From: a virus
DNA length: 38,992 nt
Strand: one strand, 5' to 3'
IMG/VR virus record: IMGVR_UViG_3300045988_152050
The translations under genes and the position numbers were made by a program. The notes beneath the pieces were generated by a model. That model saw nothing but the letters and a program-made list of their open reading frames with translations. It made no database searches and was not told where the DNA came from. Positions 2,580 to 36,847 of the stretch are shown piece after piece. The number at the start of each line of letters is the position of its first letter. Position 1 is the stretch's first letter.

Positions 2580-3770
2580 ATGCTACAAGTTTCAAACAAA
2601 ATAAGAATGTCTATTGGCAACAAGTGGCGAATTGATGATGACGGAATTATGACCGTTAGAGCCAGGGTGTTAAAAGAGGGAGTATATCCCTATTATGCCA
2701 GTGAGTTGCAAGGCCTGAATATTCCGGGCGACAAGGTGGATGTTCTTATTCCGGCAAGCGAATTCACCCCCGAAGCGTTAAAAACTGGCGAGGGTAAGCC
2801 CGTAGTCATTGATGAACACGAATGGCGAACTGTAGAAAATGCCTTGACAGACGGCTATACCAAAGGCTCTGTTGCCGGAGAAATGACAGTAGAAGACAAA
2901 GGCATAATGTGCGACCTCACAATTTTGGATGCACAGACCATTGAAGAAATCAAGAGCGGCATCTTGGTGGAAATTTCTGCCGGATATCGAGCTGATTTTG
3001 AGAAAGAAGACGGCGAGCTAAACGGCCAGCCATATTCTTATGTTCAAAAAAACATTGTGTTCAACCACATTTTGCTTTGTCGCAAAGGCGAGGGCAGATG
3101 CGGAGCCGATGTTAAAGTTATCAACAAAAAAACAGGAGAAACAAAAATGTCTTATACAATTCGCATGAAAATTGGCAATAAAGACAAAGAGATGGAGTTT
3201 TCTTCCAAAGAAGATGCCGACAAGGCTCAAGAAATGGCAAACGAAGCCAGCGAGGCAAAACAAGCTGACATTGACAAAGCCGTTGAGGAAGTAACTTCAT
3301 TGAAAGAACAGGTTGCCGCTTTGAACGCTGACTTGGAAGAAAAGAAATCTTCCATTGAGGAATACAAAGAAAAACTTGAAAATGCTTTGTCTGAAGAAGC
3401 TCAGGAAGAAATTGCCGAAGACCTCATCGCTCAGAAAGAAGCTGAGGAAGCTGTTGTCGATGAAGAAGTTGACGACAAAGACAAAGAGGAAGTTAAAAAT
3501 TCTTTGAAGAATATGAAACGCTCTGAGCGTGCCATGTTCTTGGCCGCCCACGTTATGAACAAGCGTGGCTTGGACATCAAAGAATGGGATGACAATTCTA
3601 AAATTGCATCTTTCATGACCATTGCCGCTGAAGCAAAACAGAAAGTGCAAAACAAAAAAGAATTGAGCAACAACCTCGGCAACGTTAATGGTGCCAAAGT
3701 TGTGAACTCAAAAACCGGAAACAACGGGATGTCTGCAAAAGACCGTATGTTTTCTTGGAAACACAAATAA
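2580..3770 (+). CDS. DUF2213-like prohead protease/scaffolding protein with acidic coiled-coil C-terminal half
   Basis: ATG 2580 lies inside track ORF 2400..3770. The N-terminus RIDDDGIMTVRARVLKEGVYPYYASEL resembles DUF2213. The C-terminus is E/K-rich coiled coil. It lies immediately upstream of the capsid gene. Confidence 0.7.
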   Translation: MLQVSNKIRMSIGNKWRIDDDGIMTVRARVLKEGVYPYYASELQGLNIPGDKVDVLIPASEFTPEALKTGEGKPVVIDEHEWRTVENALTDGYTKGSVAGEMTVEDKGIMCDLTILDAQTIEEIKSGILVEISAGYRADFEKEDGELNGQPYSYVQKNIVFNHILLCRKGEGRCGADVKVINKKTGETKMSYTIRMKIGNKDKEMEFSSKEDADKAQEMANEASEAKQADIDKAVEEVTSLKEQVAALNADLEEKKSSIEEYKEKLENALSEEAQEEIAEDLIAQKEAEEAVVDEEVDDKDKEEVKNSLKNMKRSERAMFLAAHVMNKRGLDIKEWDDNSKIASFMTIAAEAKQKVQNKKELSNNLGNVNGAKVVNSKTGNNGMSAKDRMFSWKHK

Positions 3771-3788
3771 CAAGTAGGAGAAACAAAC

Positions 3789-26982: not shown

Positions 26983-29139
26983 ATGAAAATCAGATTGTTA
27001 GAACTTTGTTCCGGATATGGAAGCCAAGCATTGGCTTTGAAAAATTTGGGCATAGACGTTTATTCAGAGATTGCCGAGTTTGATAAATACGCAAGTCAAG
27101 CATATATGCAGTTACACGGCGAAACCAAAAACTATGGCGATATTTACACCATAGATGAAACAAAACTCCCATATTTTGATATGATAACATATTCGACTCC
27201 TTGTTTTACAGAGGATTCTCTTGTTTTAACTGAAAAAAGGGGTTTCCAAAAAATAATTGATATTCAAATAGGTGAAAAAGTTATCACTCACGATGGTAAT
27301 TATAAAACCGTTGAAAATGTTATAAATAACGGTAAGAAAAAAACTGTTAAAATTTATGGTATGGGAATAGATGAAATTCACACAACACCTAATCATCTAT
27401 TTTATGTTAGAGAAAAATCTCACGTTTGGAATAATAAAACTCGTTCTTATACGAGAGTATTTTCCGAACCTGTATGGAAACAAGCCGATTCGTTAAAAAG
27501 AACCGATTATATGGGTATCCCTATTAACAAAAGATCAGAAATACCAGAATGGAATGGTATAACTTTTGTATGGTCTGATGGAAGAAAAGATAGATATAAA
27601 AATCAATTATCACAATATATGAACAACAAAGATTTTTGGTGGTTGATAGGTAGATACATAGCTGACGGATGGTTTAGAAATAACGGTGGAATTATAATTG
27701 GATGTGGCAAAAAGAAATTTGTCGAAATGAAAGAAAAATGTGATTCTATTGGTTTAAATTATAACATATTAGAAGAAAGAACTGTTATTAAATTTTATTA
27801 TCAGTTAAAAGAATTAGAATTGTTTGTACAATCTTTCGGTAAATATGCTTACGGTAAAAAAATACCTTCGTTTGTTATGGATTTACCTGTTGATTTACTA
27901 AATTCTTTTCTCAATGGTTATATGTCTGGAGATGGTTGTTTTACAAACGGAAGATTTAAAGCAACATCTGTAAGTCGTGAGTTAATTTATGGACTAGCAC
28001 AATGTATAGCTAAAGTTTACAAACAACCTTATTCTATTTATAAAACTGAAAGACCTAAAACAACTGTTATTGAGGGGAGAACTGTAAATCAAAAAGATAC
28101 TTATGAATTGTGCTTCAAGAAAGAAAAAAGACCACAAGACAAAGCATTTTATGAAGATGGTTTTATTTGGTTTCCAGTAACTAAAGTTGAAGAAGATGAA
28201 ATTGAAACAGTTTATGATTTAACTGTTGAGGAAAATCATTCATTCACAGTACAAGGAGTTATAGTTCATAATTGCCAAGACTTCTCAGTTGCCGGAAAAG
28301 GAAAAGGCGGCGACAAGGGAAGCGGTACACGTTCAAGCCTTTTGTGGGAATGCGAGCGGATTATTAAAGCGGTTAAGCCAAAATATCTTTTAATGGAAAA
28401 CGTAAAGAACCTTTTGAGCGAAAAACACCGACATAACTTCAATGAATGGTTTAAGGTGCTTGAGGGTATGGGATATACAAACTATTACAAAGTCCTTAAT
28501 GCCAAAGACTACGGCATACCGCAGAACCGGGAGCGTATATTTTGCGTGTCAATCCTTGGCGGTGGCCAATATCTATTCCCAAACCCGAAACCCCTTGAGA
28601 AACGCTTAAAAGATATGTTGGAGGATAATGTCGATGAAAAATATTATTTATCCGACATAAGTGTTAATCGACTTCTTAAACGGAGAGATGGTTCAGGATA
28701 TAAGCCCTGTATAAATGGAGAGGTAGCTGTAACATTAACAACAAAACCTGGACAAAGAAACTCTGATAATTACATACAGGAACCTTTTGTTGTCGCAAGT
28801 CGTGGACGAAACATCGAAAATCCAAGCGACAGAACTATAGGAAGTCCGACCGAGCAAAGACTTGAGATAAACTATACCGGTTGTACAAACACTCTTATAA
28901 GCGTTCAAAAGGATAATTATGTTGTTGAAAACTATCGCATCCGCAAACTTACAGCAAGGGAATGTTTTAGATTGATGGGCGTGAAAGATGAACAGTTTGA
29001 CCGATTGAACGGGATTTCAAATTCGCAACTGTATAAACTTGCCGGAAATAGTATCGTGGTTGACGTTTTGGAAGCAATATTCAAAAATTTACTTATGCCG
29101 GAAACAACCGAAACCAAAGGGCAATTAAGTTTGTTTTGA
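26983..29139 (+). CDS. DNA (cytosine-5)-methyltransferase precursor containing an intein
   Basis: Motif I LCSGYGS, motif IV TP|C-QDFS split by the insert, motif VI ENVKNL, motif VIII QNRERIF and motif X GNSIVV. 718 aa, or 361 aa after removal of the 357-aa insert. Confidence 0.9.
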   Translation: MKIRLLELCSGYGSQALALKNLGIDVYSEIAEFDKYASQAYMQLHGETKNYGDIYTIDETKLPYFDMITYSTPCFTEDSLVLTEKRGFQKIIDIQIGEKVITHDGNYKTVENVINNGKKKTVKIYGMGIDEIHTTPNHLFYVREKSHVWNNKTRSYTRVFSEPVWKQADSLKRTDYMGIPINKRSEIPEWNGITFVWSDGRKDRYKNQLSQYMNNKDFWWLIGRYIADGWFRNNGGIIIGCGKKKFVEMKEKCDSIGLNYNILEERTVIKFYYQLKELELFVQSFGKYAYGKKIPSFVMDLPVDLLNSFLNGYMSGDGCFTNGRFKATSVSRELIYGLAQCIAKVYKQPYSIYKTERPKTTVIEGRTVNQKDTYELCFKKEKRPQDKAFYEDGFIWFPVTKVEEDEIETVYDLTVEENHSFTVQGVIVHNCQDFSVAGKGKGGDKGSGTRSSLLWECERIIKAVKPKYLLMENVKNLLSEKHRHNFNEWFKVLEGMGYTNYYKVLNAKDYGIPQNRERIFCVSILGGGQYLFPNPKPLEKRLKDMLEDNVDEKYYLSDISVNRLLKRRDGSGYKPCINGEVAVTLTTKPGQRNSDNYIQEPFVVASRGRNIENPSDRTIGSPTEQRLEINYTGCTNTLISVQKDNYVVENYRIRKLTARECFRLMGVKDEQFDRLNGISNSQLYKLAGNSIVVDVLEAIFKNLLMPETTETKGQLSLF
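27202..28272 (+). mobile_element. intein with in-frame LAGLIDADG homing endonuclease, inserted at the catalytic Cys of the PCQ motif
   Basis: It starts CFTEDSLVLTEK, has block B TTPNH, and ends VIVHN followed by Cys+1 (tgc 28273). The two LAGLIDADG motifs are WWLIGRYIADGWF and LNSFLNGYMSGDGCF. Confidence 0.85.
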
Positions 29140-31490: not shown

Positions 31491-31528
31491 AATCTTATTG
31501 GGTTTATATAGTAATATTGGAGAAAATT

Positions 31529-32005
31529 ATGGCAAGAGGGCATAAACAAACACTAAAAGTCTACACCTCAGAAGAAGCTCGATTTTATGGTGCTATGGGC
31601 GGCAAAGCATCAGCCGATGCCAGAAGACGAAAGAAAAGCCTGAAAGAACTGACACAAGCCTTGCTTGAAATGAAGCCGCATGAAAAGATAGCCGCAAGGT
31701 CAAAAATGCTTTTTCCGGACGTTGATCCTGAAGATTTGACCAATGGCATGGTGTTGGCAATGGCGATGTTTGACAAGGCGATAAAAGAACAAGATGTAAA
31801 AGCGGCTCAGTTTGTGAGAGATACGGCCGGAGAGATGCCGGAGCAGGTCATAAGCGGCAACCTTGGGCAATCAACTGTCTTTGTTACCGAGCAAGACCAA
31901 AACAATATCATCAAGCATATTCAAGAAGTATTAAATGATGGCCAGTCAAAAACAGAAAAAACAACCAAAAAAGCAAGCAAGCCCAAAAAAGGAACAAAAA
32001 AATAA
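31529..32005 (+). CDS. putative terminase small subunit
   Basis: Basic N-terminus with GGKASADARRRKK, then AIKEQDVKAAQFVRDTAGE. It lies directly upstream of, and overlaps, terL. The assignment is partly positional. Confidence 0.5.
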   Translation: MARGHKQTLKVYTSEEARFYGAMGGKASADARRRKKSLKELTQALLEMKPHEKIAARSKMLFPDVDPEDLTNGMVLAMAMFDKAIKEQDVKAAQFVRDTAGEMPEQVISGNLGQSTVFVTEQDQNNIIKHIQEVLNDGQSKTEKTTKKASKPKKGTKK

Positions 32006-35000
32006 CACCTCTTTATCGGGCGAAATAAACCGAGAATACCTTGGCAAGACTTTGCTTGATGCCGGATTTGAGGTTTGGTTTCGTTATATGTTCCGAGTTC
32101 TTGAGGGCAAGCCTTTTATTATAGACCGTATCCACAAGGATATGTTCCATGTTTTTGATGACCTATATAACCTGCGAATAACTCGCGAATGTATGAACAT
32201 TCCGCCCCGCGCCGGAAAAACAACCCTTTGCAAATATTGGCTCATTTACTGCCTAACCAAAGATCCGCGGTGTAATTTTATTTATACTTCATTCTCGCAA
32301 ATGCTCTTGTCCGACATTGCCCGAGAGGTGGCTCAGATTTTAGAGCATCCGATTTATAAGGAACTATACGGTAACGGCTTGTATGGCGTGGAAGAAAAGG
32401 AAGAAAACCCGATTGATGACTTCTGGCGTGAATATCTGCTGAAAGAAACAGGGAGGGCCGTGTATGCCAGCAAACGCATCATCACCGCAAAAGGCGGACA
32501 AATTCTGTTTGCGTCCATCGGGTCGACAATCACCGGTTTTGGTGCCGGCATAAGAGGAGCAAAAGGCTTCTCCGGGGCGTTAATCTGTTTTCCGTACGAC
32601 GAATTAGTTTTAACGGAAAAAGGATATAGAAAGATTGGCGAAATTGTTGAAAATAAAGAGGATATAAAAGTTTGGAGTTATAATTTTGAGAAAGAAAGAC
32701 CAGAGCTTAAACGCATAGAAAGACATATTAAAAACATAACCCCTACTAAACAATGCTTTGTTGAAGTCAAATTAAGTAATGGAAAGAGCTTTATTTGCAC
32801 AGATAATCACAAAGTATGGACAAAGAATAGGGGCTATGTTGAAGCAAAGGATTTAACAAGTATAGATTGTGTTGTTACCTTTTCTAATCCTTTTTATTTG
32901 GTTAATACTAAGGTTAAAAATTTTTGCAACTTCTTGTCTGGGAATGTTCTTATCTCTGATTTTTTCCAAAGCATCAGAAGAAAGTTCAATCTTTTTTCTG
33001 GGCGTATAGTTAATTTCTTTAACAAAATTTTTGAAACTTTTTCTTGTTTTGATTGCTTGAACAGTTCCGGGATGACAATTAAAAGCAAGAGCAATCTCTT
33101 TCAAACTTCCTTTTGCTTTAGCAATTTCTTCAACATCTTTTCGAGAAAGTTTGGAACGAGAAAAAACCAAAGTACCAAGTTCAACAGCATCTTGCATATT
33201 TTCCGATTTAGTGCCATATCGCAAATTTTCAAGACGATCGTCAGATGGATTGCTATTAAGGTGTCTAACTTCTATTCCTTTTTGTTGCACGCCAACGAAA
33301 GCCCACAAAACAAGTTGATGAACACCAATGGTAAGGGTTTTATTATCTTTTCGAAGATTAACAACCTTGTAACCTTTTCTATTAGAGGGATTAAGTCGTT
33401 TTTCTTTGAGCTTAATAATTCTTCTTTTATCTCCGCTTCCCGTAAATACATCTCTAGAGCAGCTTATAACATCTCCAAAATTGGAAACTCTATAAAGTCC
33501 ATCATATCCGGGGATGTCTTTGTAAATAATATTAGCGTTGTTTGTCATAATCACACCTCTTATTGTCTTACTGTGTATGAAAATCATAATCTGTATGTTG
33601 GTAAATGTCGAGTATTAGTTTCTAATTGCGATGATGCCAACAAGCCGGCCGATATTCAATCTGAGGTTATGCGCGAAAAAGTCCGCAAATATTACGATGA
33701 AACCTTGCTCTCACGATTGAACGACAGTAACGTGCCGATATTTAACATTCAGCAAAGGCTCCACCTTGGCGATTTGTCCGGATATTTGCTTGAACAATAC
33801 AAATTTGACAGCATCATAAAGCCGTTGCTTGAACCGGACGGCACATGCAACATCGCAAGCCAATACACCCCAGAGCGTATCAAAGAAATCTCATTCAATG
33901 ATACCATGTTCCAAGCACAATATCAGCAATCACCGGTAGCCGAAAAAGGCAACATCATCCAACGTGATTGGTGGGGAATGTATGATGCCGACCACACCCC
34001 GATTGATGGCAAGCTGATAATAACGGCCGATACGGCATACAAAAAGACCAAGACCGCCGACTATTCATGTTTCCAAGTTTGGGAGCTTTTACGCAAAGAG
34101 ATGCGTTTGCGTGATATGATTGTCGGTAAATGGGAATTCCCCGAACTTTTGGAAAAAGCCACCCAGATATGGCGGAAGTGGACAGACGACAGCTTAATCA
34201 ATCCGGCCGCATTTATGTACATTGAAGACAAAGCATCCGGCATCAGCTTGGAGCAAACGCTCATCCAATCCGGCATCAATGCCATTTGTTGGAAGCCAAA
34301 GGAATATGACTACCCAGAGGACAAGGTCGGCAGAACAAGAGAGCTTTCATGGGATGTGTACCGTGGTCTTGTAAAATTGAAAAAAGATGATAAAATGAGC
34401 CAGTATCTCGTCAACGAAGCAGCATTGTTTGCCGAAGACATGTCGCACTCTCATGATGACAGCTGTTTTGTCGCGGGAACAAAAGTAGCCACTATTTGGG
34501 GAAATAAAAACATAGAGGACTTAAAGGTTGGCGATTTAGTCATAACCCCTTGGGGGCTTTCTCCGATAACACGAACAACGAGCAGGATGAAAAAGGTCAT
34601 TAATAATATTGGATTAACCGGAACTAAAGACCACAAAATATACACAACACACGATTATTCTTTTGACAGCCTTGAAAATGTTGATTATTCTATGGTTAGT
34701 AAATTAACCATAGAGGAATTAATCTCATGGCAAATAAAATCTTTATACTGTTCAATGGCAAAAAATACTATCGTAACCCAAAGACAGGATATTATGAAAA
34801 TAAAATCTTTGCTTACGGAAAAAGAAAAACATTCCGGCTTCATCGGGTTGTGTATGAATTTTATTCGGGAAAAGAAATTCCTAAAGGCTATCACATTCAT
34901 CACAAAGACGAAAATAAAGATAATAACGATTTTAGCAATTTGGTTCTTTTATCAAGCAGTGAACACGCTAAACTTCATGGCAAAAAAACCGCTGAAATTT

Positions 35001-35372
35001 GGAAAAGACCTGAAATGCAAGAAGCAAATAAAAGAGGTAGAGAAATGTGCAAAGAGTGGCATCGCTCAAAAGAGGGGAGAGATTGGCACTCAAAACATCA
35101 AAAAGAATACATTGCCAAACTTCATATTACTAAAATATGTCCCGATTGCGGAAGAAGATTTAATACCCCAAACGACCACAGAGAGCAGACAATATGTCGA
35201 TGGTGTCGAGATAAGTACCTTAAAAGAGAACTACGCAGGAAAGCCAAAGAAAAGGGTTTATAATATAACAGTTCGAGCTGGTTGCTATTATGCAAATAAT
35301 ATTTTAGTATCAAATTGTGATGCAGCATCAATGGCCCATTCTATTTGGAGATACGCCGGGGGCGGACAATAA
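31935..35372 (+). CDS. terL: terminase large subunit precursor carrying two inteins (1145 aa; about 514 aa after splicing)
   Basis: Walker A PPRAGKTT. Removing the inserts restores GALI-CDDANKP (Walker B-like) and SHSHDDS-CDAASMAH (nuclease acidic motif). It is a single uninterrupted track ORF. Confidence 0.85.
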   Translation: MMASQKQKKQPKKQASPKKEQKNNTSLSGEINREYLGKTLLDAGFEVWFRYMFRVLEGKPFIIDRIHKDMFHVFDDLYNLRITRECMNIPPRAGKTTLCKYWLIYCLTKDPRCNFIYTSFSQMLLSDIAREVAQILEHPIYKELYGNGLYGVEEKEENPIDDFWREYLLKETGRAVYASKRIITAKGGQILFASIGSTITGFGAGIRGAKGFSGALICFPYDELVLTEKGYRKIGEIVENKEDIKVWSYNFEKERPELKRIERHIKNITPTKQCFVEVKLSNGKSFICTDNHKVWTKNRGYVEAKDLTSIDCVVTFSNPFYLVNTKVKNFCNFLSGNVLISDFFQSIRRKFNLFSGRIVNFFNKIFETFSCFDCLNSSGMTIKSKSNLFQTSFCFSNFFNIFSRKFGTRKNQSTKFNSILHIFRFSAISQIFKTIVRWIAIKVSNFYSFLLHANESPQNKLMNTNGKGFIIFSKINNLVTFSIRGIKSFFFELNNSSFISASRKYISRAAYNISKIGNSIKSIISGDVFVNNISVVCHNHTSYCLTVYENHNLYVGKCRVLVSNCDDANKPADIQSEVMREKVRKYYDETLLSRLNDSNVPIFNIQQRLHLGDLSGYLLEQYKFDSIIKPLLEPDGTCNIASQYTPERIKEISFNDTMFQAQYQQSPVAEKGNIIQRDWWGMYDADHTPIDGKLIITADTAYKKTKTADYSCFQVWELLRKEMRLRDMIVGKWEFPELLEKATQIWRKWTDDSLINPAAFMYIEDKASGISLEQTLIQSGINAICWKPKEYDYPEDKVGRTRELSWDVYRGLVKLKKDDKMSQYLVNEAALFAEDMSHSHDDSCFVAGTKVATIWGNKNIEDLKVGDLVITPWGLSPITRTTSRMKKVINNIGLTGTKDHKIYTTHDYSFDSLENVDYSMVSKLTIEELISWQIKSLYCSMAKNTIVTQRQDIMKIKSLLTEKEKHSGFIGLCMNFIREKKFLKAITFITKTKIKIITILAIWFFYQAVNTLNFMAKKPLKFGKDLKCKKQIKEVEKCAKSGIAQKRGEIGTQNIKKNTLPNFILLKYVPIAEEDLIPQTTTESRQYVDGVEISTLKENYAGKPKKRVYNITVRAGCYYANNILVSNCDAASMAHSIWRYAGGGQ
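32853..33548 (-). CDS. free-standing HNH homing endonuclease (NUMOD4 + HNH_3 + C-terminal HTH) encoded antisense inside TerL intein 1
   Basis: IPGYDGLYRVSNFGDV matches NUMOD4 and VHQLVLWAFVG...EVRHLNSNPSDDRLENLRYGTKSENMQD matches HNH_3. AAGAGGTG RBS lies 5 nt before ATG 33548. Its codons are exactly aligned with the forward TerL codons. Confidence 0.85.
   Translation of the reverse strand: MTNNANIIYKDIPGYDGLYRVSNFGDVISCSRDVFTGSGDKRRIIKLKEKRLNPSNRKGYKVVNLRKDNKTLTIGVHQLVLWAFVGVQQKGIEVRHLNSNPSDDRLENLRYGTKSENMQDAVELGTLVFSRSKLSRKDVEEIAKAKGSLKEIALAFNCHPGTVQAIKTRKSFKNFVKEINYTPRKKIELSSDALEKIRDKNIPRQEVAKIFNLSINQIKRIRKGNNTIYTC
33583..33611 (-). promoter_or_regulatory. candidate minus-strand promoter for the antisense HNH gene (TCGACA, 17 nt, TATGAT)
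   Basis: The reverse complement of 33606..33611 is TCGACA and that of 33583..33588 is TATGAT. It lies about 35 nt upstream of the HNH start codon. Confidence 0.3.
34464..35315 (+). mobile_element. TerL intein 2 (284 aa): Hint splicing blocks flanking an out-of-frame HNH gene
   Basis: It starts CFVAGTKVATIWG, has block B GTKDHKIYT, and has the C-terminal block VYNITVRAGCYYANNILVSN followed by Cys+1 (tgt 35316). Confidence 0.8.
34727..35263 (+). CDS. free-standing HNH endonuclease with C-terminal zinc ribbon, overprinted in a second forward frame inside TerL intein 2
   Basis: LHRVVYEFYSGKEIPKGYHIHHKDENKDNNDFSNLVLLSSSEHAKLH is an HNH motif, and CPDC...CRWC is a zinc ribbon. AGAGGA RBS lies 9 nt before ATG 34727. 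The frame is offset by 2 nt from terL. Confidence 0.85.
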   Translation: MANKIFILFNGKKYYRNPKTGYYENKIFAYGKRKTFRLHRVVYEFYSGKEIPKGYHIHHKDENKDNNDFSNLVLLSSSEHAKLHGKKTAEIWKRPEMQEANKRGREMCKEWHRSKEGRDWHSKHQKEYIAKLHITKICPDCGRRFNTPNDHREQTICRWCRDKYLKRELRRKAKEKGL

Positions 35373-35383
35373 AGGAAACACCA

Positions 35384-36847
35384 ATGACACGAAGAAACAA
35401 AAACAAATCGCAAAAAGTTGCTAACACCATTTTAACCGGAGCCGGAGCAAACACCACGCAAGACCGTGGAAGCCAGCAAACGGCGGCCATATATTCACGC
35501 AACCCATATTTTAGAAACGACTTTTACAGCCGTTGGCAAGAGTGGGTGCGTTGGTACAATACCAGTTGGGAAGCCGGAAAAATTGTGGATATTCCTGTGC
35601 AAGATGCATTCCGCATTCCGGTAAAGATTACCGGACTTGAACAACCGGACATTGAAGCCATCGAGAAGTACATGAAATATCTTGATGTCAACAACAACTT
35701 CAAGCGAGCCGCCACCATTGAGCGATTGCTTGGCGGTTGTGTCATTATTGTTGGTGTGAAAGATGAAAACGACAACCCGGAATCAGTTCTTGACCTAAAA
35801 AGACTAAAACAAGGCGGCATTACGTTCTTAAATGTCATCACAACCGAAAAAATCACGAAATGCGAATATGAAACAGACGTATTCAGCCCGGAATATGACA
35901 AGCCGAAATATTACATGATAAACGGCATAAAGACCCACGTCAGCCGATTGATTGTCTTTGATGGCGACCCATTGTTTAATCATACATCCATGAACCTTTT
36001 GCAAAACTTCCGCTACAATCCGGCAGGCTTTGGCGAGAGCGTATTATCCAGATTATATGATAGCCTTGTCCGTGCCACCGGAACGCAAGAGGGAGCATAT
36101 CACCTTGTGAACCTTGCCAGTGTTCTCTTGGTCAAATGCGAACGCTTTATTGACCTGCAAGCCACCAGACAAGGCAATGCCGCATTGAATATGCTTGATA
36201 AGATTGCCGAGCAACTGAGCATATATCGTGGAGCGGTTATTGATGGCAAAGGAACAGAGATAGCTCAACACTCCGCAACATTTGGCAGCGTGCCGGAGCT
36301 TTTGAACACATACCTACAAATTCTTGCGGCCGGCTCCGATATTCCGGCAACTCGTTTCTTGGGCGATAGTCCGTCAGGCTTAAACTCCACCGGAGAGAGC
36401 GACCTTGAAAACTACTACAACAATGTTGACAGCTACCAAACCACACGCTTGGAGCCAAAATATCGCAAAATGCTTGATATTATCGGCTCTTGCATTTGGG
36501 GCTTTAATGTCTGGAAAGAAAAATCGCAAAACCTAGAACTTGAGTTTGAGCCGCTTTGGAACATCAACAAAATGGATCAGGCAACTGTTGACAAGACCAG
36601 AGCAGACATTCTCCGTCAGTTCAAAGAAGACGGCATCATCAGCGACAAGCAATACGCCGAAGAAATCAATAGCAAGAAAATTCTTGATATTGAGCTGGAC
36701 GTTGAAGAATATGACGAAGACCGAGAAGAATTGATTGACGGCTCAGACATCCCCAGCTTGCGAGATGAAACCGACCGAGTAATTGATACCATAGGAGCTA
36801 AGCCGAATGTCGATAGCGGTGTTAAACAAGAAACCGGACAAGGTTAA
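35384..36847 (+). CDS. portal protein (DUF1073-like)
   Basis: About 487 aa, located directly after terL and before the Mu F-like gene. ATG 35384 follows AAAGGA. Confidence 0.75.
   Translation: MTRRNKNKSQKVANTILTGAGANTTQDRGSQQTAAIYSRNPYFRNDFYSRWQEWVRWYNTSWEAGKIVDIPVQDAFRIPVKITGLEQPDIEAIEKYMKYLDVNNNFKRAATIERLLGGCVIIVGVKDENDNPESVLDLKRLKQGGITFLNVITTEKITKCEYETDVFSPEYDKPKYYMINGIKTHVSRLIVFDGDPLFNHTSMNLLQNFRYNPAGFGESVLSRLYDSLVRATGTQEGAYHLVNLASVLLVKCERFIDLQATRQGNAALNMLDKIAEQLSIYRGAVIDGKGTEIAQHSATFGSVPELLNTYLQILAAGSDIPATRFLGDSPSGLNSTGESDLENYYNNVDSYQTTRLEPKYRKMLDIIGSCIWGFNVWKEKSQNLELEFEPLWNINKMDQATVDKTRADILRQFKEDGIISDKQYAEEINSKKILDIELDVEEYDEDREELIDGSDIPSLRDETDRVIDTIGAKPNVDSGVKQETGQG

Follow-up and report, generated by a model that had tools for sequence, protein, structure and literature searches.

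The question raised by the large terminase gene (terL) of the virus in IMG/VR record IMGVR_UViG_3300045988_152050 is why a complete endonuclease gene should lie inside an intein and, at the same time, outside the reading frame of that intein. How did the two come to share the same nucleotides, how does the terminase frame stay open across the nuclease gene, and how would each product be made? The window considered here is the whole stretch of 38,992 nucleotides (nt) taken from this record, and positions refer to it unless another sequence is named. Within it the precursor of the large terminase subunit (TerL) is encoded by an open reading frame (ORF) of 1145 amino acids (aa; 31935..35372, + strand, taken from the ORF list) that carries two inteins. 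The second of these, intein 2 (34464..35315, +), holds between its splicing blocks a nested HNH homing-endonuclease gene of 178 aa (34727..35263, +; identified by domain matches), which is read at an offset of 2, equivalent to -1, from the TerL frame. A preliminary description, made from the letters of the window alone, had drawn attention to this arrangement, and the coordinates and motifs that it gave for intein 2, the HNH ORF and the AGAGGA Shine-Dalgarno sequence all proved correct on re-reading.

The best explanation of the locus, and one that we hold to be likely, is that a mini-intein has been invaded by a free-standing homing endonuclease gene, so that the element is a composite of two separately translated parts. 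The argument is built from the anatomy of the insert, from purifying selection that is specific to each frame, from a presence/absence polymorphism and a recent lateral transfer among related phages, and from a layout that recurs across a whole family of inteins.

Anatomy of the intein and the nested gene

Removal of both inserts leaves a spliced TerL of 514 aa, which matches the phrog_38 terminase large subunit family at 4e-77 and compares with a length of 513-516 aa in intein-free homologues. Residues 349-504 of the spliced protein form the RNaseH-like nuclease domain Terminase_6C, and intein 2 is inserted at the end of this domain, at ..MSHSHDDS|C..N|CDAASMAH... In the TerL frame the intein occupies 852 nt, or 284 codons, from Cys1 (TGT at 34464) to Asn284 (AAT at 35313-35315), limits that come from empty-site alleles and from a family profile. 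The +1 extein residue that follows is also a Cys (TGT, 35316..35318, +), at a position where comparison of the junctions gives Val (GTT or GTA) in intein-free alleles. A blastn search with the TerL region against 50,697 phage records gave no match, that is, no sequenced close relative in that collection.

The splicing function would reside in two separate regions of the TerL frame. The N-terminal splicing region (34464..34733, +), located by profile search, comprises blocks A and B (CFVAGTKV...GTKDH(57)KIYT...ISW); the family N-part profile finds it with hmmsearch at E = 3e-30, or with 44 bits in a leave-one-out search, and Pfam Hint_2 matches it at 5.9e-06. The C-terminal splicing region (35226..35315, +) comprises blocks F and G (...KKRVYNITVRAGCYYANNILVSN) and is found by the C-part profile at E = 2e-16 (hmmsearch). 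Features of a class-1 intein are present, namely the Cys1 nucleophile, a block B that reads T54-K-D-H57 with H57 invariant across the family alignment, and a C-terminus (..ILVSN284|C, 35313-35318) in which the terminal Asn is followed by the +1 Cys. When a profile is built from the splicing parts (N and C) of six family members, it matches the gp41-1 intein (PDB 6QAZ) at 9e-18 over positions 5-133 of 133, together with 43 other PDB intein chains, and a leave-one-out profile from which the window was omitted still scores the window's own N and C parts at 75 bits. The NCBIfam intein N- and C-terminal models gave no match to intein 2, where one of them, TIGR01445, did match intein 1. The identification of the insert as an intein, which the preliminary description had based on its termini, is therefore upheld both by the Hint profile matches and by the empty-site alleles described below.

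Between these two regions the TerL frame encodes nothing recognisable, as had been proposed. The middle of the intein (residues ~89-260) has no match to any Pfam family, and in AlphaFold2 (AF2) models its predicted local distance difference test score (pLDDT) is mostly <50, with only a predicted helix at 137-173 reaching 58-69. For comparison, the terminal beta-strands of the 284-aa host-frame product are predicted with a pLDDT of about 70. The alignment behind this model was shallow, with 5 sequences, since a protein-database search with the 284-aa product returned only 5 proteins. Judged from the models, the TerL-frame middle is not a folded domain.

The same nucleotides read at offset 2 give a very different picture. 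The HNH ORF overlaps intein codons 88-267; its frame is closed by a stop 24 nt 5' of the ATG, and its own TAA overlaps the Val-Tyr-Asn codons of block F, such that positions 35226-35263 are dual-coding, specifying both the C splicing region and the C-terminal tail and stop codon of the HNH protein. The product matches Pfam HNH_3 (PF13392) at 1.5e-15 and phrog_15471 'HNH endonuclease' at 7e-28, and its best solved relative by sequence is the homing nickase I-HmuI (PDB 1U3E), at 3e-8. An AF2 model built from 29 homologues has a mean pLDDT of 92.5, and a Foldseek search of the PDB with it returns I-HmuI as the sole significant match (E = 5.6e-5, probability 1.0, 151 aligned columns). The global TM-score of this pair is only 0.31, a low value that is attributed to the elongated, multi-domain build of both proteins.

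The predicted catalytic core of the nuclease, recognised from the homologue alignment and the I-HmuI motif, extends from H56 to H84 (HIHHKDENKDNNDFSNLVLLSSSEHAKLH; 34892..34978, +). Within it H58, H59, N67, N71, H80 and H84 are invariant in the 29 homologues, and the core up to residue 76 aligns with the I-HmuI motif DHKDGNKDNN. On the C-terminal side of the core the sequence shows a CxxC...CxxC zinc ribbon (C138, C141, C157 and C160; 35138..35206, +), with C138 and C141 invariant and C160 nearly so, and for this ribbon AF2 places beta-strands at 133-137 and 144-148. By sequence and by model, the nested ORF is an HNH_3, or I-HmuI-like, homing endonuclease. Searches of the two frames with hidden Markov models (HMMs) thus find an HNH protein in one and Hint flanks in the other, and the Pfam and I-HmuI matches bear out the earlier proposal that the HNH gene is complete, has its own start and occupies the position at which an in-frame endonuclease usually sits.

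Empty sites and lateral movement

A search with the middle extein retrieved an allelic series of phages in which this part of TerL is 96-99% identical at the protein level. Three of them (L110, L111 and L112) are without any intein, have a TerL of 513-516 aa and read straight through both sites, as ..ALIIDDANK.. and ..HDDS|VD(S/A)ASMAH. A fourth (L107) has intein 1 only; it differs from the window by 3 mismatches in 2676 nt downstream (99.9% identity) and is missing exactly the 852 nt of intein 2. Alignments with the empty-site alleles break at 34463 and resume at 35319-35325, and the intein-less terL site in L107 and L110 reads ..GAAGACATGTCGCAC..GACAGC|GTTGATAGTGCATCAATGGC.. With these empty-site alleles of near-identical phages, the boundaries of intein 2 are fixed to the nucleotide. 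Its precise removal gives a normal TerL, save for the change of Val to Cys at +1.

The insert has also left traces of movement between phages that already possess it. A tract at 34603..35330 (no strand assigned) is near-identical to the locus L001, with 4 mismatches in about 730 nt, and is flanked by extein and N-intein sequence that differs from L001 by 4-17 per 100 nt. On this comparison the tract is the footprint of a recent lateral transfer, or recombination, of the segment with the HNH gene and the C-intein. Beside this, the first 140 nt of intein 2 (34464..34602) are mosaic: here L001 is the same as a second locus, L002, and both share 15-20 positions of difference from the window, while in the HNH and C-intein part L001 sides with the window and differs from L002. 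The mosaic start of the intein implies a recombination breakpoint inside it, near 34603-34648. The allelic series and the L001 tract are together the population signature expected of homing, and it is from this signature that we infer homing itself.

Selection on two reading frames

If the nested gene and the intein are both functional, which frame does selection see? Inside the HNH ORF the window and L002 differ at 32 positions. Read in the HNH frame, these comprise 19 synonymous and 13 nonsynonymous changes; read in the TerL frame, they comprise 4 and 28, respectively. The differences at 35207 and 35231 are synonymous in both. Outside it, in the N-intein, the C-intein and the extein, the changes between the same two sequences fall at TerL third positions, and in the N splicing region the substitutions relative to both L001 and L002 are mostly at TerL codon position 3. 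The comparison with L001 inside the HNH ORF yields only 3 differences, all of them HNH-synonymous, where the exteins are about 9% diverged. The same pattern holds across the family: in 42 pairs the HNH interior takes 1673 of 3650 changes at HNH position 3, which is host position 2, whereas in the splicing parts host position 3 takes 940 of 1940 (N) and 138 of 187 (C). These substitution patterns show selection switching frame exactly at the borders of the HNH ORF, and because the changes are synonymous in the appropriate frame inside and outside the ORF, interpretations of the locus as a sequencing error, a pseudogene or a group I intron are taken to be excluded.

One alternative to a functional nested gene is that of decay, and we regard it as improbable. 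It holds that the HNH ORF is a functionless relic within an intein that is fixed in TerL and vertically inherited. Decay does occur within the family: the HNH of L041 is interrupted after 16 codons, that of L101 has 91 codons compared with 184 in L102, and L067 and L108 are mini-intein derivatives without an endonuclease gene, all of which fits the known life cycle of homing endonucleases. In the clade of the window, however, the HNH ORF is unbroken and has kept its catalytic residues, the ratio of nonsynonymous to synonymous substitution rates in the HNH frame is well below 1 in the L002 comparison (19 synonymous and 13 nonsynonymous changes), and the nearest relative, L107, is without the insert. 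Together with the exclusively HNH-synonymous changes in L001, which persist despite the divergence of the exteins, this insert-free neighbour makes for a pattern that needs recent horizontal movement.

An open frame across the nuclease gene

The TerL frame passes through the HNH gene with 0 stops, and no internal TerL stop was found anywhere in the insert. Is such openness surprising? The preliminary description had held that two same-strand open frames of this length are unlikely to arise by chance, and at the single locus this claim is weak: when the synonymous codons of the window's HNH gene are permuted, the TerL frame is open in 7.5% of trials (P = 0.075), with ~1.9 stops expected. Synonymous permutation is too conservative a test, since the codon usage that its null model retains has already been shaped by stop avoidance. 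It was therefore replaced by an empirical null drawn from non-nested homologues and by family-wide counts, and here the claim stands. In the equivalent frame, 6-14 stops are found in HNH homologues that stand alone or belong to fractured genes, at 35-46% GC. The 106 stops in their 2395 codons give an expectation of ~7.9 per 178 codons and a Poisson P(0) of ~4e-4. Host-frame stops number 0 in 75/75 nested family members examined, with a median permutation P of 0.03; the product of the 75 P values is ~1e-122, a figure to be read with the proviso that the members are not fully independent, although their synonymous sites are saturated. On these counts the open host frame is under selection.

The choice of frame can be rationalised in the same terms. 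The other forward frame contains 20 stops in the window and 13-36 in homologues of comparable GC, and the HNH gene is always at the same offset because only that register is cheap to keep open.

The intein family and its relatives

A search of IMG/VR with the splicing-domain profile alone yielded 80 loci, which were classified by a six-frame HMM pipeline. In about 65 of them a member of this HNH family lies between the splicing blocks at offset 2 and the host frame has 0 stops, and ~10, of 124-175 aa, are mini-inteins that have no intact HNH; an HNH in frame with the intein was found in none of the 80. Most family inteins occupy the same terminase nuclease motif. A mini-intein of 125 aa (L067) and HNH-bearing inteins of 299 aa (L101 and L102) are found in identical extein contexts. 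The earlier suggestion that the architecture is repeatable is therefore substantiated, in that about 70 related inteins have kept it, and the homologous inteins, when compared, have the HNH out of frame or absent, never in frame.

The layout is also present, hidden, in deposited genomes. When GenBank phages are searched by tblastn with the HNH protein, the matches land inside annotated 'terminase large subunit' coding sequences (CDSs) of four genomes, those of Clostridium phage phiCDHM19, Tetrasphaera phage TJE1, Rhodobacteraceae phage LS06-2018-MD07 and Acinetobacter phage Highwayman. All four have the HNH offset by 2 relative to the CDS frame, an open TerL frame and, flanking the HNH at the nuclease motif, canonical intein termini (..HDD|C.. 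or ..DH|C.. at the N-terminus; ..VSN|C or ..VHN|C at the C-terminus). We take phiCDHM19 and TJE1 to be propagated isolates, and if they are, the presence of the same architecture in deposited phages means that the TerL precursor must yield a functional terminase. From the essential nature of TerL, and from the architecture shared with phiCDHM19, TJE1 and Highwayman, we infer that protein splicing takes place. By these classifications the out-of-frame state is the predominant state of the intein family across very different phages.

Other loci depart from this layout in several ways. In one group (L008-L011) the same HNH lies between Hint N and C parts with 11-12 host-frame stops, and in the larger set of L003/L012, L006, L008-L011, L026 and L113 either the host frame has 11-16 stops or the C part is read in a different frame; the HNH of L003/L012 lies antisense between the Hint parts. 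In Vibrio phage 1.238.A (L026) the gene is fractured, with a TerL CDS followed by the HNH and then by a CDS annotated as 'hint domain protein'. All of these loci are probably split-intein, or 'fractured', terminase genes, judging from their sequences. In Lactobacillus phage CL2 (L113) the HNH is annotated as free-standing and yet is flanked by Hint N and C remnants, and because these remnants are in different frames the terL of CL2 may be fractured rather than intact. A related intein at another site (..MDNRT|C.., 383 aa) in L074 and L076 has weak antisense matches to the HNH profile and an open host frame; this too may be an intein with an antisense nuclease.

Outside the nested state, the HNH has its closest relatives (53-54% identity) in L117 (2016..4025) and L118 (295..858), where they stand free between terL and the portal gene; free-standing members of the HNH family also adjoin terminase genes in PAE1, Shemara and BP10. 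The genes of L117 and L118 lie only a few dozen codons from the position that intein 2 has in the window. TerL and the HNH of L117 share the ending ..RGLF*, a hint that the 3' end was duplicated by insertion of the endonuclease gene.

Taken together, the intact, truncated (L041 and L101), mini and HNH-bearing states span the classical life cycle of an endonuclease gene. A wider proposal, which we put forward tentatively and with slightly more doubt than belief, is that the -1 nested HNH is a stable, selected state of a large, old, gp41-1-related terminase intein family, in which uncoupling the nuclease from the abundant late TerL is advantageous and every stage of the pathway has been preserved. 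An advantage of uncoupled nuclease synthesis would explain why no in-frame fusion occurs among about 70 diverged members. If the proposal is true, the family preserves a path from a free-standing gene by terL, through the out-of-frame gene in a mini-intein, to an empty mini-intein or a split intein.

The company that these genes keep invites a different reading, in which the nested HNH is a terminase-associated accessory nuclease, as for cos cleavage in HK97-like phages, that has been parked in terL. Terminase-adjacent HNH proteins can be packaging factors, as with HK97 gp74. Homologues of the nested HNH do adjoin terminase genes in CL2, PAE1, Shemara, BP10, L117 and L118, and a linkage of HNH and terminase genes has been noted (PMC3592412). 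Against this, the near-identical phages L107 and L110-L112 have no HNH within the 6.8-kb loci examined, so that the nested HNH is dispensable; its closest solved relative is the intron-encoded nickase I-HmuI and not an HNH of the gp74 type; and its distribution is sporadic and mosaic, as is that of selfish elements. A packaging role is on this evidence very unlikely.

Expression of the nuclease

If the HNH protein is not part of the TerL polypeptide, how is it translated? The ATG at 34727 is preceded at 9 nt by a Shine-Dalgarno sequence read from the window (AGAGGA, 34712..34717, +). Such a sequence is found at a comparable distance in about half of the family members, and in nearly all members an ATG, sometimes a GTG, lies only a few codons from where HNH homology begins. 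Family-wide, the HNH frame is closed at a median of about 36 nt upstream of this start, and the start ATG-G often shares nucleotides with a Trp codon of the host frame.

A predicted RNA hairpin with an 11-bp core stem (34680..34723, +), identified in the window by folding z-scores, holds the Shine-Dalgarno sequence in its 3' arm; the hairpin's minimum free energy is -17.5 kcal/mol, with z = -2.8 over 91 nt and z = -4.8 over 56 nt. Across the family the 56 nt up to the start have a mean z of -0.81, compared with +0.09 and -0.14 for controls (Wilcoxon p = 0.001 and 0.015). Since the Shine-Dalgarno sequence is held in the arm of a stable hairpin, expression of the HNH is probably low or gated, and the fold suggests a regulatory role for the hairpin. 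Hairpins that mask endonuclease starts are known for the endonucleases of fractured genes and for mobE (PMC2677866). As a lead only, a TTGACA-17-TATTCT element ends at 34691, and a transcript from it, with its 5' end within the hairpin, would leave the Shine-Dalgarno sequence free.

A different route to the same protein would be a programmed -1 frameshift, or transcriptional slippage, from which the HNH would be made mainly as a fusion of N-extein, N-intein and HNH. The HNH is in the -1 frame in every member, A-runs are frequent in this region, and a candidate A_AAA_AAT heptamer (34760..34766, +; from a slippery-site scan), in phase for a -1 slip from TerL to HNH, lies 33 nt into the ORF and is kept in L001 and L002. 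The preliminary description had raised such a fusion of the Hint domain to the HNH, and it fares poorly: an in-phase slippery heptamer is present in only 16/75 members, and because these are at different, non-homologous places, frameshift fusion is not a family feature. Nearly all members retain the start codon described above and the upstream closure of the HNH frame, and the -1 offset is explained more simply by the number of stops that have to be removed, 6-14 in this frame vs 13-36 in the other. There is therefore little probability that the HNH is expressed chiefly in this way.

Sequencing artefacts and introns

Could the two frames simply be the product of sequencing or assembly indels, the true element being a bifunctional intein with an in-frame HNH? 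Homopolymer indels do exist at this locus in one poor assembly, as in the 1-nt deletion in the A7 run at 34982-34988 in L119/P0008. To create the window in this way would, however, need two compensating indels, one at each end of the HNH. The window, L001 and L002, about 70 more IMG/VR contigs and the four deposited phage genomes all have one and the same frame structure. The HNH frame has both the stop 24 nt 5' of its ATG and its own stop codon, and the codon-position pattern of substitutions changes frame at the ORF borders. The indel that was looked for was thus not found in independent assemblies or in deposited genomes, and the artefact in L119 looks different, which leaves a negligible chance that the frames are spurious.

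Spread over its whole length, the L119 contig (Logan ERR4088665) has six 1-nt deletions, five of them in A/T homopolymers, and one 1-nt insertion, and its portal gene is also broken. The protein P0008 that is predicted from it is a spurious fusion in which the first half of the HNH is joined to the C-terminal end of the TerL frame; considered as an in-frame Hint-HNH fusion, it was rejected as a homopolymer-indel artefact. A protein-database search for in-frame Hint-HNH fusions returned 28 ordinary matches (169-223 aa) with HNH_3 only.

Equally negligible is the possibility of a group I or group II intron, one that carries an endonuclease ORF and is removed as RNA. I-HmuI-like HNH genes are typically intron-encoded and AT-rich inserts in conserved phage genes are often introns, but a search of Rfam found no intron or other RNA family at E <= 1 within 31500-36000, the insert begins and ends with canonical intein blocks that are read in the TerL frame, and that frame is stop-free in all members, which an intron would not demand.

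How the element would work

Under the invaded mini-intein explanation, the splicing part would be a class-1 mini-intein of the Hint fold, made of ~88 N-terminal and ~30 C-terminal codons in the TerL frame, which would excise the whole 284-residue insert and restore the 514-aa TerL. The nuclease part would be an I-HmuI-like HNH_3 gene of free-standing type, with its zinc ribbon, lodged in the -1 frame in the loop between the splicing halves. Ribosomes translating TerL would pass through the HNH gene in the wrong frame and produce a linker of ~180 residues without a conserved fold, to be discarded with the intein, and the sole constraint on the TerL frame across the HNH would be the avoidance of stop codons. 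The nuclease itself would arise by internal initiation at its own ATG (34727), the Shine-Dalgarno sequence being exposed either when ribosomes melt the hairpin or in a transcript that starts inside it. Its most likely target would be the intein-less terL of co-infecting relatives, which it would nick or cut near ..GATGACAGC|GTTGAT..., after which repair would copy the intein and the nuclease gene jointly, a process that would constitute homing.

Several points weigh against this explanation. Splicing activity, nuclease specificity and homing are deduced from sequence. With Pfam Hint the window by itself scores at or below threshold (27.2-28.8 bits vs a cut-off of 28.4), and the AF2 model of the Hint parts is weak (pLDDT about 70); the contrast between the HNH and the host-frame models is in part an effect of alignment depth, 29 sequences vs 5. 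The intein is without the block-F His and the penultimate His (..RAGCYYANNILVSN; S283; ..VRAGCYYANN), and the loss of the block-F His is peculiar to the window's clade, most other members having kept it; the VSN ending is common to the window, phiCDHM19, TJE1 and LS06. Both of these His residues are common assisting residues that are not universal among inteins. The openness of the TerL frame, tested by permutation at the single locus, reaches only P = 0.075 (0.075-0.18 overall). With respect to expression, the hairpin is strong (z below -2) in only about a quarter of the members, L002 carries a mismatch in the stem, and a scan for sigma-70-like promoters upstream of the hairpin found 3 sites, with 3.1 expected in shuffled sequence.

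Other inteins in the window and its relatives

The preliminary description had seen in the first TerL intein a parallel solution, and this parallel is borne out. Intein 1 (32586..33626, +; 347 codons; Pfam Intein_splicing 2.4e-13, TIGR01445 5.5e-13) contains an antisense endonuclease ORF (32853..33587, -; NUMOD4 2e-11, HNH_3 1e-10) that is in exact codon register with the TerL frame. In this antisense register the codons TTA, CTA and TCA are read as stops on the TerL strand. The ORF has 18 Leu and 17 Ser codons without a single TTA, CTA or TCA, for which P is about 3e-4 given the phage's own codon usage. Synonymous permutation of the antisense ORF gave P = 1, being uninformative because the frames are in codon register, and it was replaced by this test of Leu and Ser codon choice.

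Relatives of the window carry a different first intein. In L001 (2278..5646; same contig as L109) intein 2 is accompanied by an intein 14 codons upstream of the intein 1 site of the window, with the termini ..GFG|CFDYNTEV...ILVHN|CGIRG.., a different antisense NUMOD4-type HNH ORF (3133..3780, -) and an open TerL frame. In L108 the same alternative intein is present as a mini-intein of about 134 aa from which the endonuclease gene has been deleted.

A third intein of the window, at about 27202..28272, is located in a DNA cytosine-5 methyltransferase gene (26983..29139), where it splits the catalytic Pro-Cys motif (TYSTP|CFTEDSL...VIVHN|CQDFS). It is a canonical bifunctional intein, because its LAGLIDADG motifs (WWLIGRYIADGW, LNGYMSGDGCF) are in frame, and it thereby provides an internal contrast to the two non-canonical TerL inteins.

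Significance

The origin of intein endonucleases and of split inteins has so far been argued mostly from models, such as 'splicing first' or invasion by endonuclease genes (Dassa 2009). This family contains, for each of the proposed stages, natural examples that are closely related and belong to a single essential gene: the empty site, the mini-intein, the out-of-frame nested gene, the fractured gene and the free-standing gene by terL. The deposited genomes of phiCDHM19, TJE1 and Highwayman make splicing, internal initiation and homing testable if cultured phages exist. The locus also shows same-strand overprinting over a long range in a clear-cut form, one of the two frames being limited only to stop avoidance, and could be useful to calibrate methods that detect overlapping genes. 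For gene callers the consequence is either an oversized 'terminase' in which the nuclease is missed, or a nuclease that is called at the cost of a truncated TerL. Finally, a Hint scaffold that tolerates an unstructured insert of 180 residues would be relevant to intein engineering.

Comparison with known systems

How does this element relate to those that have been described before? With canonical bifunctional inteins it has in common the position of the endonuclease in the Hint fold and the double strategy of splicing as protein and homing as DNA; it differs in that the nuclease is outside the intein polypeptide, at offset 2, with its own start and stop. The nuclease resembles I-HmuI (1U3E), from a group I intron of Bacillus phage SPO1, in its N-terminal beta-sheet followed by the HNH core. 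The C-terminal part of I-HmuI is DNA-binding. I-HmuI is intron-encoded, whereas the nested HNH is in an intein and has at its C-terminus a helical region and the CxxC...CxxC zinc ribbon.

The fractured genes described by Dassa et al. 2009 (PMC2677866) combine split inteins with intervening endonuclease genes, and in-frame capture was modelled there as an alternative outcome. They too have an endonuclease of free-standing type between the N and C intein parts of an essential phage gene, with terminase among the hosts, and hairpins just upstream of the endonuclease start. The gp41-1 split intein (6QAZ) is the best solved-structure match of the present family (E = 9e-18). In the fractured genes, however, the endonucleases are GIY-YIG or Vsr-like rather than HNH, and the window intein would be cis-splicing, its gene not being fractured, because the host frame is continuous with 0 stops across 34464..35315. 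Another arrangement cited in the same paper is mobE, which is embedded in nrdA of phage Aeh1 and splits nrdA into two polypeptides (PMC2677866).

A 'hidden HNH', the ShiLan insertion, has been reported out of frame in mycobacteriophage DNA methylases, the gene concerned being essential or conserved and its host frame stop-free (Arsenault et al. 2025, PMC11855218). It poses the same puzzle of how a hidden ORF is translated, but it is without splicing domains, so that the read-through peptide stays in the host protein, where in the present case the Hint blocks would remove it.

The nearest precedent is the survey of 784 actinophage inteins by Gosselin, Arsenault & Gogarten (bioRxiv 10.1101/2025.01.02.630785), in which 63/784 are non-canonical and are termed rare. 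These include antisense LAGLIDADG and VSR-like endonucleases as well as an endonuclease VII-like protein (IPR004211) 'in reading frame 3 relative to the intein', which was termed previously unreported, and the authors propose that free-standing endonuclease genes invaded inteins. The similarities are close: the endonuclease lies between the splicing blocks, out of frame and at the same offset, the host-frame middle has no recognisable fold, the terminase large subunit is one of four host protein types with non-canonical inteins, and the antisense endonucleases are analogous to that of intein 1. The differences concern the nucleases and their prevalence. The same-strand nuclease of that survey is endonuclease VII-like, while the one described here is HNH_3 or I-HmuI-like with a zinc ribbon, and Pfam assigns the window's protein to HNH_3 and not to Endonuclease_7. 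The antisense nucleases there are LAGLIDADG or VSR-like, while that of intein 1 is NUMOD4 plus HNH_3, antisense HNH not being reported there. A layout that is rare in the survey is dominant here, across Clostridium, Acinetobacter, Tetrasphaera, Rhodobacteraceae and metagenomic phages.

Identity of the two same-strand nuclease families was considered and rejected, as tblastn with the HNH of TJE1, the actinophage member of the present family, gave no match to the endonuclease VII-like family. This search recovered no SEA-PHAGES actinophage at E <= 1e-8 (22 records), and there was likewise none among the matches listed for tblastn with the window HNH. Among the papers searched, none ties an intein to phiCDHM19, TJE1 or phiCD119. 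The layout itself has therefore been known since the 2025 preprint; what is new is the nuclease family that occupies it and the out-of-frame state as the norm of an intein family.

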